Part shown: positions 57,373 through 59,012 of the stretch, piece after piece
How the letters are laid out: each line of letters opens with the position of its first letter
How positions within the stretch are numbered: position 1 is the stretch's first letter
From: Escherichia phage AV119
Length of the DNA stretch: 64,000 nucleotides
Sequence record: OR352949.1
Direction: 5' to 3' (one strand)
Translations under genes and position numbers: made by a program
Notes under the pieces: model-generated
The model's database searches: none
What the model was told of the DNA's origin: nothing
The model's input: the letters and a program-made list of their open reading frames with translations, nothing else

Positions 57373-58152
57373 TTAATTAAAAATATATACTTCATCAGTT
57401 CCATTCTTTTCTTTGGAATGATATATGTTAAAGACGTATTTTTTATTAAGATGCTTAACATTATATTTTTTAGACCATTCTTTAAGAAGAGTGTTTTCCT
57501 TTCCGTGATGCTCTAAAACATTCGACAGTCCAAATTTTATTCCTCTGTCATTTAAAGAATCTAAAAGATTTAAAAGGTCTTTTTCTTCTTCTTCTGACCA
57601 AAATTTATTATAATCAGCAACTGTTATAAGATATGGAGGGTCCACATATACAAAATCGCCGTCTAGAATTTTGACATCTTTAAAATGCAATGAACTAAAG
57701 ATTATTTTATCACAATTTTGTTTAAAGTGATTAAAGCGCTTTTCACTATTTTTGTTTATAGTTCTTTTTCCAAACGGAGTAGTAAAATTTCCTTTATCGT
57801 TTATACGAATCATATTACTAAACCCGTGAAAATGAAGAACATAAAGTAAAAGAGGATCTCTAGTTTTATTATAATCTTCACGTAATTTCAAAAACTCTTC
57901 TTTTGATGTTTTTGATAGTTTATATTGCTTTATTACTTTTAATACGTCATCCCATGATACATTAATAAGACGCTTATACATTTCAATAATTGGTTCTTGA
58001 ATATCATTGGCCAATACAGGACCATTGACGTTCAAAGACACGGATAAACCTCCACAAAATAAATCCACGAATCTGTCATATTTTGGAAAATGAGGCTTAA
58101 GTTCAGGTAATAATGACTGTTTATTACCTGTATACGCGATAGCTCCTAGCAT
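57373..58152 (-). CDS. dam: Dam DNA adenine methyltransferase
   Basis: 259 aa; SAM motif FVDLFCGG and catalytic DPPY; matches T4 Dam. Confidence 0.93.
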
Positions 58153-58712
58153 TATATTCTCTCATTTATTGCAGCAAAAAACGAATTATATAATTCTTCA
58201 TCATATGTATTTGATAGTAATACTAACACGTTTTGTGATTTAGCATATTCATTAAACCTTGCTTGGATAGTTGGATTATCAGTAAATGATTCTCTTTTTG
58301 TCCATTTATTACGTGGATAATATCCGCATGGCAAAAAATCTAATATCATCAATGACACAGGGTTTTCAGTTTTTGTGTATTCTTTTAATTTCTCTTTATC
58401 TTCTAAATATATTCCAACCGAATCAATAGCTGTACCTCCACCAACTTGGTGTTTAATTTCAATTATATGCTTTTTACCGTTGCGAGAAATAACAATATCA
58501 AATCTTCTAGTACGCTTCTTAGTTATAAAATTAGAACAAAACAAATTATTTGATTTTTCAGTATCATCGGTTAAAACCATTTTTTCTTGATAACTAACTG
58601 AACAATCAGTGAAATATTCTTTTACTTTATTAAGTATGAAATTTTCAACTACGGCAGATATTTTATATGAATCTCCGTTTAAAGCCATTTCATGCACAAT
58701 TTTATTAATCAT
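58152..58712 (-). CDS. hypothetical protein (186 aa) with PD-(D/E)xK-like nuclease motif, stop overlapping dam start
   Basis: RRFDIVIS-x8-HIIEIKHQ resembles the D...(D/E)xK core of restriction-endonuclease-fold nucleases; own early promoter upstream. Confidence 0.5.
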
Positions 58713-58734
58713 TATATCATCCTCAGCAATTTAT

Positions 58735-58767
58735 TTTATAATACCATAACAAGCTGAGAAAGTAAAC
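58735..58767 (-). promoter_or_regulatory. early-type promoter (GTTTAC-N17-GGTATTATAA) upstream of the 186-aa ORF
   Basis: plus strand ttataataccat...gtaaac. Confidence 0.45.
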
Positions 58768-58811
58768 AAATTTATGAAATTTGTGATAAATATTAATTTA
58801 AAGGAGGACAT

Positions 58812-59012
58812 ATGGCACAAAAATTAATGGCACTTGTTAATGCCATCAAAGGTAATAAGAAACGTATAGCTTTTACTATTTCTGCTATGGTAGGAATTTT
58901 ACTCTGGAACTTTATTTTATCACCAATTGCAATTGCGCATGGTGTTAATATTCCAGTAGTTACTCTTGATACATTCGTAGATCTAGCATTTGCTTTAGTT
59001 GGGTTAATTTAA
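58812..59012 (+). CDS. small hydrophobic membrane protein (66 aa) on the opposite strand, convergent with gene 61
   Basis: strong RBS AAAGGAGGA 6 nt before ATG; two predicted TM segments; 3' end overlaps gene 61 stop. Confidence 0.45.
   Translation: MAQKLMALVNAIKGNKKRIAFTISAMVGILLWNFILSPIAIAHGVNIPVVTLDTFVDLAFALVGLI

Follow-up and report, generated by a model that had tools for sequence, protein, structure and literature searches.

The Dam methyltransferase of bacteriophage T4 is a textbook "orphan" enzyme, whose benefit to a phage protected by glucosylated hydroxymethylcytosine (glucosyl-hmC) has never been clear. Whether this enzyme was always an orphan is the question raised by the locus described here, found in a 64,000-nucleotide stretch of Escherichia phage AV119 (sequence record OR352949.1; hereafter, the window). 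There, an open reading frame (ORF) of 186 amino acids, ORF186, lies directly upstream of dam on the minus strand, between dam and the primase gene 61. An earlier note on this DNA had regarded ORF186 as a nuclease-like gene coupled to dam and had considered, for the interval, a homing-type insertion, a relic of a restriction-modification (R-M) system, or a nuclease/immunity pair including ORF66, a small membrane protein gene on the opposite strand. The evidence gathered below leads us to lean, with some reserve, towards ORF186 being a small, Type II-like restriction nuclease whose cognate methylase is Dam.

Linkage of ORF186 to dam

ORF186-specific DNA was detected, at a coverage of at least 80%, in 148 Tequatrovirus records, and the dam/ORF186 junction in an equal number, so that all 148 copies adjoin dam. 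About 506 Tequatrovirus records contain the locus: dam and ORF186 are both present in 148 of them, including T2, dam alone in about 30, including T4, and neither gene in about 325, including RB32, where gene 56 is directly followed by ORF66 and gene 61. No record carrying ORF186 but devoid of dam was found among those examined (0, versus about 30 with dam only), a pattern of asymmetric loss which fits an endonuclease not tolerated in the absence of its methylase.

The association extends well beyond close relatives. Homologs at 32–64% identity were found in Dhakavirus MX01, in the metagenomic T4-like contigs L006–L012, in Jiaodavirus KPV15, and in L013 and L014, the two most distant members of the family; each of them abuts or overlaps a D12 methylase gene, being located directly upstream of it. 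Nuclease and methylase genes abut or overlap by 0–35 nt in nine diverged lineages out of nine, and the identities of the two products drop in parallel across lineages, the nuclease diverging faster. At least three locations were found for the pair: the interval from gene 61 to gene 56, the interval separating denB from ndd (KPV15), and a site immediately upstream of rIIA (L013; rIIA identified at E 8.5e-157). Conserved adjacency of endonuclease and methyltransferase genes, a criterion for Type II R-M systems, is thus a firm feature of ORF186 and dam in the sequences compared, every Tequatrovirus copy as well as the nine lineages, and supports the R-M-like tie to a GATC methylase proposed in the earlier note. 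A putative nuclease gene that moves with, overlaps and co-diverges with a methylase gene, and is never found without it, while the methylase is often found alone, bears the signature of an R-M pair.

The same data bear on the proposal that ORF186 is a free-standing, selfish nuclease of the homing type, cutting cassette-less genomes near its insertion point and being copied by repair, with dam as its cargo. Like the Seg and Mob endonucleases of T-even phages, ORF186 is a small nuclease gene that some phages have and others lack, set between conserved genes of the same part of the genome; unlike them, it does not belong to the GIY-YIG or HNH folds and is fixedly coupled to a methylase at several genomic locations. 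Its constant neighbour is dam rather than a locus, and the pair has been found at three positions while the putative DNA-recognition loop stayed invariant. Homing, moreover, gives no reason for ORF186 never occurring without a methylase, nor does it sit well with a stop-start overlap with dam kept in all lineages, or with structural and profile matches which are best for Type II restriction enzymes. We therefore regard a homing origin as improbable.

Fold and active site of ORF186

Profile searches and structure prediction uphold the assignment of ORF186 to the PD-(D/E)xK fold. The AF2 model (predicted local distance difference test, pLDDT, 80.7; predicted template modelling score, pTM, 0.80) features the alpha-beta-beta-beta-alpha-beta core, with E23 on helix 1, D72 on the second core strand (residues 67–77), and E85 and K87 on the third (80–88). 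These four residues are invariant across 10 sequences, with identity down to 29%; in the same ten sequences, a loop following the ExK strand, KHQ-x3-GTAIDS, is likewise invariant. The motif originally noticed, RRFDIVIS followed by HIIEIKHQ, is indeed present, with a spacer of 5 residues rather than 8, and 12 residues between D72 and E85. On the basis of the model and of this conservation, ORF186 can firmly be described as a predicted PD-(D/E)xK fold protein with E23, D72, E85 and K87 as candidate catalytic residues, from which we infer nuclease activity.

The top structural match is MunI (PDB 1d02), a Type IIP restriction enzyme of nearly equal size, at 13% identity, and MunI together with the EcoRI-like class of Type IIP enzymes counts among the nearest known systems; MunI, unlike what is proposed here for ORF186, recognizes CAATTG and pairs with a different methylase. 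A sequence search of the PDB returned no match to any chain at E <= 10, and a search of the viral folds in BFVD gave the MX01 ortholog plus weak generic endonuclease matches only. The only recurrent profile matches are with restriction-enzyme families, namely DpnII, BanI and the PADLOC REase_II models.

These matches bear on the idea that ORF186 is a PD-(D/E)xK protein involved in repair, recombination, structure-specific cleavage or regulation of dam, and merely co-transcribed with it. Both the structural neighbour and the recurrent profile matches are restriction enzymes, and R-M pairs are typically marked by a linkage of the kind seen here, in which nuclease and methylase genes overlap, co-diverge and stay obligately together, at three loci; such a non-restriction role is, in our opinion, unlikely. 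We conclude that ORF186 probably acts in the manner of a small restriction enzyme of Type II.

A weak similarity to DpnII

Among restriction-enzyme families, DpnII deserves separate consideration. The methylase of the DpnII system, DpnM, is of the family that also contains T4 Dam. The Pfam family DpnII (PF04556) is the top one for 5 of the 10 ORF186 family members at E < 0.1, with a best E of 8.3e-5 and 22.5 bits; as the gathering threshold is 23 bits, all members fall below it, including the window ORF186, which scores 16.8 bits. The PADLOC model PDLC03548, to be regarded as a DpnII model, DpnII itself having scored E 8.5e-127, matches 4 of the 10, with a best E of 5.3e-6. NCBIfam yielded only noise with ORF186.

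Comparison by hhalign of the ORF186 family with a DpnII alignment (18 homologs, database sequences only) resulted in an E of 4e-4 over 81 columns, with a probability of only 35%. The DpnII query was checked beforehand: it matched the Pfam family at E 2.7e-100, and database proteins, one of which named DpnII, were 99–100% identical to it. The register pairs E23 with E152, D72 with D201 and E85 with E214, as well as the Gly-rich loops, and places K87 opposite an invariant Asn. ORF186 aligns to positions ~143–235 of the 278 in the PF04556 profile, leaving DpnII residues 1–145 without a counterpart. The structure model of DpnII is mediocre (pLDDT 68.9), its residues 146–288 showing the same order of secondary structure elements as ORF186; its PDB neighbours overlap those of ORF186 but rank MunI low, so that a specific relationship is neither confirmed nor excluded by them.

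Taken together, ORF186 resembles the DpnII/MboI Type IIP enzymes (PF04556), which pair with DpnM, in that its partner methylase is of the same D12 Dam/DpnM class and its core features the same order: a helix carrying Glu, a strand carrying Asp, a Glu-x-(K/N) strand, a Gly-rich loop and a helix. It differs from DpnII (288 residues) in its size, in lacking the N-terminal ~145 residues, in having Lys where the DpnII family has Asn, and in being carried by virulent phages, whose DNA is hypermodified, rather than by bacteria. ORF186 may be a remote relative of DpnII that is truncated at the N-terminus. A label of "putative DpnII restriction endonuclease" has been given to the gene in GenBank by one submitter.

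Bridges towards bacterial enzymes were sought on a large scale. An exhaustive hidden Markov model (HMM) search of 1.84 billion protein representatives (E <= 0.001) gave 11 matches, 9 of which are family members or fragments, and no bridge from the ORF186 family to bacterial enzymes; the other two, very weak and involving long repetitive proteins, were discounted. A word-indexed profile search at E <= 10 had the same outcome. Scanning of 185,579 bacterial and archaeal genomes for the two most conserved motifs produced 134 pattern matches and no confirmed homolog. The family, with about 10 relatives found, is tiny and apparently phage-restricted: those examined for their genomic context are all located in DNA of T4-like phages.

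Loss of the nuclease gene

The earlier note had left open whether T4 has an ortholog: it does not, and only a 3' remnant of about 85 bp is found. T4 lacks 548 bp between the TTTGTGAT copies at 58232 and 58780, and the deletion also takes out the promoter match at 58738–58766. Judged from the sequence, T4 is a deletion derivative and not an ancestral empty site, because the last ~85 bp of ORF186 remain, fused to the region upstream of ORF66 at one repeat copy. The same type of deletion, with dam kept, is found in about 30 records. A separate deletion of 371 bp, between copies of another repeat (ATATCATC), has removed the catalytic part of ORF186 in KarlGJung, again sparing dam, while in G4500 and ERS-1 ORF186 matches in two separate pieces, suggesting a frameshift.

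T2 deserves a separate comment. Its ORF186 is frameshifted at a poly-A tract, which alters the C-terminus, and the product, of 181 residues, ends in ...SFLLQ. The poly-A/T tract, at 58176–58181 near the 3' end of ORF186, differs in length among the window, T2/T4 and KarlGJung; the change in its length results in the frameshift of the T2 C-terminus and in uncoupling from the dam start. Miner and Hattman (1988) reportedly described a T2-specific "536-bp insertion 5' to dam", treated as being without detectable homology, which we take to be the segment missing in T4. The GenBank T2 record M22342 contains the ORF186 segment, unannotated. The "orphan" Dam of T4 and the T2 insertion thus concern the same locus, the missing 548-bp segment being the body of ORF186; in contrast with the view reported for 1988, the segment appears here as a conserved nuclease gene and T4 as the deletion derivative.

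Selection and expression signals

In close pairs, the ratio of non-synonymous to synonymous substitution rates (dN/dS) is 0.035–0.05 over the whole ORF186, with 13 synonymous versus 2–3 non-synonymous changes; at long range, where dS is saturated, it is 0.1–0.37. By this measure ORF186, as well as ORF66, is a real gene and not a chance ORF. An "R-M-like relic" is thus a poor description of the window, where the gene is uninterrupted and purifying selection acts on it; it is T4 that carries a relic. The related proposal that ORF186 is an inactive remnant, retained for the promoter and translation-coupling signals of dam, finds some sustenance in the several losses without loss of phage viability (T4, KarlGJung, the frameshifted copies) and in the truncated C-terminus of T2. 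It is hard to reconcile with the dN/dS values over the whole ORF, with catalytic residues and a 10-residue loop invariant down to 29% identity, and with T4 expressing dam without ORF186; we consider it very improbable.

ORF186 had also been credited with its own early-type promoter. A consensus match is indeed found at 58766–58738 (9 of 12 positions plus TG, GTTTAC agreeing with the T4 early -35 consensus), and the JB75 and Lutter records have a predicted promoter at the corresponding position. It can be taken as a plausible match only, because such matches are not commoner than in shuffled sequences: 11 sigma-70-like matches were found in this AT-rich stretch, versus 14.9 expected, hence no enrichment. 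The overlap between the ORF186 stop and the dam start, also noticed earlier, was found as described, one base being common to the two codons (TAATG), an arrangement consistent with translational coupling.

Early-type expression signals would also suit a different activity, in which ORF186 attacks cytosine-containing host or foreign DNA, Dam methylation licensing or directing the cutting or nicking of methylated or hemimethylated GATC in the manner of DpnI or MutH, and the phage being spared by glucosyl-hmC. The DNA of E. coli, Klebsiella and Yersinia hosts, already Dam-methylated, would offer substrate in plenty, the destruction of cytosine-containing DNA by dedicated nucleases (denA, denB) is known in T-even phages, and the KPV15 pair adjoins denB and ndd. 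Even so, we judge such methyl-directed cutting distinctly improbable.

Depletion of GATC

GATC is the most depleted of the 256 tetramers in the window, with 72 sites and an observed/expected ratio of 0.34 (second-order Markov model, 64 kb); for TCGA, the next palindrome in depletion, the ratio is 0.68. Mosigvirus JK42 and Jiaodavirus KPV15 are poorer still in the site, with ratios of 0.13 and 0.14 over their first 50 kb, which shows strong, subfamily-wide selection against GATC. We considered this depletion as evidence of self-restriction and discarded it as non-discriminating: it is equal or stronger in JK42, devoid of the cassette at the locus, and host Dam, MutH or restriction of GATC by the host could be the cause instead.

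Organization of the locus and ORF66

Features of the locus are collected in Table 1. Over the 2.8 kb around ORF186, identity reaches 100% with Escherichia phage AV120 and 99% with many further Tequatroviruses, the stretch as a whole being that of a T2-like Tequatrovirus; the order of the minus-strand genes is 56 (dCTPase), dam, ORF186 and gene 61. ORFs and coordinates of the interval between dam and gene 61 are as claimed in the earlier note, while its length is 856 bp, not 857. An Rfam scan of positions 56000–61500 identified no RNA family.

Table 1. Features identified between dam and gene 61 and in the flanking genes (window coordinates)
Feature	Position	Strand	Notes
dam, D12-class (Dam/DpnM-type) N6-adenine methyltransferase	57373-58152	-	Pfam PF02086, E 6.5e-51; annotated Dam in T2, T4 and others
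TAATG junction, ORF186 stop and dam start, one base common	58150-58154	-	minus strand ...ATATAATGCTAGG
ORF186, 186 aa, predicted PD-(D/E)xK restriction-endonuclease-fold protein	58152-58712	-	phrog_8706
8-bp direct repeat TTTGTGAT, left copy	58232-58239		T4 deletion end
Shine-Dalgarno GAGGA, 7 nt before the ORF186 ATG	58720-58724	-	minus strand ...TGCTGAGGATGATATA-ATG
Sigma-70-like early-type promoter match, upstream of ORF186	58738-58766	-	(G)TTTACT-17-TATTAT plus TG
8-bp direct repeat TTTGTGAT, right copy	58780-58787		T4 deletion end point
T4 late-promoter-like box GATAAATA, 19 nt upstream of the ORF66 start	58785-58792	+	
ORF66, 66 aa, small membrane protein	58812-59012	+	phrog_2024, E 1.6e-31
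Terminator-like hairpin and T-run, downstream of gene 61, inside the 5' part of ORF66	58824-58849	-	
Gene 61 primase	59009-60037	-	

A strong Shine-Dalgarno had been attributed to ORF66, and AAGGAGG is found at 58801–58807, 4 nt before its ATG. As for its two predicted transmembrane segments, one, which follows a basic N-terminus, is clear (residues ~19–41, Kyte-Doolittle 19-residue mean 2.0); the second is not established, the corresponding hydrophobic stretch reaching 1.1–1.5 only and containing two Asp. Searches by tblastn detected ORF66 in 692 phage records, convergent with gene 61 wherever examined (in the window, with a 4-nt overlap), and its dN/dS is 0.10–0.22: conservation of the plus-strand ORF is thereby borne out. 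Its uniqueness as a plus-strand gene of the early region is also confirmed in annotated genomes, the homolog being the sole plus-strand coding sequence (CDS) within the first 50 kb of both JK42 and KPV15.

This distribution disposes of ORF66 as the immunity partner of ORF186. The gene is found in about 690 phages, and the records include about 325 Tequatroviruses and about 190 distant matches (<60% identity; those examined are Mosigvirus) without dam and ORF186 at the locus. It occurs in the dam-less RB32 and JK42, and also in KPV15, whose nuclease-dam pair has a different location. ORF66 is, on this evidence, independent of the nuclease-dam module.

A box of the nATAAATA type is located about 20 nt upstream of ORF66 homologs. 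It is a perfect TATAAATA, the established T4 late-promoter consensus, in MX01 and L006, GATAAATA in the window, T4 and T2, and AATAAATA in RB32 and JK42, with none clear in L009. ORF66 is probably a conserved, single-pass, late-expressed small membrane protein. Its first 13 codons host the terminator-like hairpin of gene 61, made of 11 pairs followed by TTTTTGTG; "Terminator" features are annotated beneath the ORF66 match in fPS-2 and SA21RB. The stretch is thus predicted to be constrained on both strands, because the hairpin sits inside the opposite-strand ORF. In T4, ORF66 is intact (NC_000866, ~17738–17938, plus strand; 66 residues, 3 differences from the window), with a strong Shine-Dalgarno and the GATAAATA box, and NC_000866 lists no CDS for the interval from dam to gene 61: a conserved small membrane-protein gene is missing from the T4 reference annotation. 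A literature search found no paper on either the ORF186 gene or ORF66.

A few neighbouring features were also observed. In the metagenomic, Dhakavirus-like contig L006, an extra ORF of 93 residues (3657–3938) lies between ORF66 and the nuclease gene; its match is to phrog_4856 (E 9e-40), a family of nucleoside triphosphate pyrophosphohydrolases, in the C-terminal half. On the minus strand of the window, two adjacent ORFs of 118 and 210 residues (60206–60562 and 60564–61196) have a common terminal motif, SIDDQIFNAFMN(R/K)G, and resemble tandem 61.2-like paralogs, the short one being annotated in RB32 as "similar to gp61.2". Two further minus-strand ORFs, of 69 and 64 residues (56394–56794), lie between soc and gene 56, at the site of the segF homing endonuclease in T4; both are present in T2, where they are implausibly annotated as head or virion proteins.

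Discussion

The picture that we favour is that of a two-gene R-M-like module of T-even-type phages, formed by ORF186, possibly related at a distance to the catalytic core of DpnII, a GATC enzyme, and dam. Transcription would start early, from the promoter at 58766–58738, and cover both genes; ORF186 would be translated just before Dam, coupled to it through the TAATG overlap. The nuclease would cleave GATC, or a GATC-containing site, when its adenine is unmethylated, phage DNA being spared by Dam methylation and by glucosyl-hmC, while the likely targets would be other DNAs in the infected cell lacking Dam protection. We infer GATC specificity, methyl-sensitivity and biological target from the Dam partner and from the weak similarity to DpnII. 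The "orphan" Dam of T4 would represent the surviving half of the module after the 548-bp deletion.

Several observations weigh against this picture. Linkage within Tequatrovirus may partly reflect common descent of a single cassette; the similarity to DpnII reaches no curated threshold, with the low hhalign probability reported above, and the DpnII family has Asn at the position of K87. The T2 copy of ORF186 is frameshifted at its C-terminus, and no T2-specific GATC nuclease is known to have been reported, T2 being a classic laboratory phage. Finally, the obvious substrate for a methyl-sensitive GATC enzyme is missing, because enterobacterial hosts are Dam+ and glucosyl-hmC DNA resists most Type II enzymes. 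The glucosyl-hmC of T-even phages blocks about 94% of the latter (PMC7653180).

A variant with a different target, to which we assign a minor but appreciable probability, is that ORF186 evolved in phages as a GATC endonuclease capable of cutting hmC-containing T-even DNA, acting as a weapon between co-infecting T-even phages. Carriers would then destroy, or recombine into, Dam-less rivals, which make up about two thirds of Tequatroviruses and include the Mosigviruses examined; T4-type phages would have dropped the toxin and kept Dam as an antidote, and the depletion of GATC (observed/expected 0.13–0.34) would be the scar of the conflict. If true, this would provide a function for T-even Dam, unexplained for some 40 years.

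For the restriction module that we favour, the implications concern both the enzyme and its carrier. ORF186 would be among the smallest Dam-linked restriction enzymes, and the nuclease-methylase pair would have a carrier where it is not expected, namely a virulent phage whose DNA is hypermodified: a lytic phage of this kind would possess a restriction system of its own, probably to compete with other DNAs present in the cell. If the pair is the ancestral, and still widespread, state of the locus, the origin of the Dam methyltransferase of T-even phages would thereby be explained.

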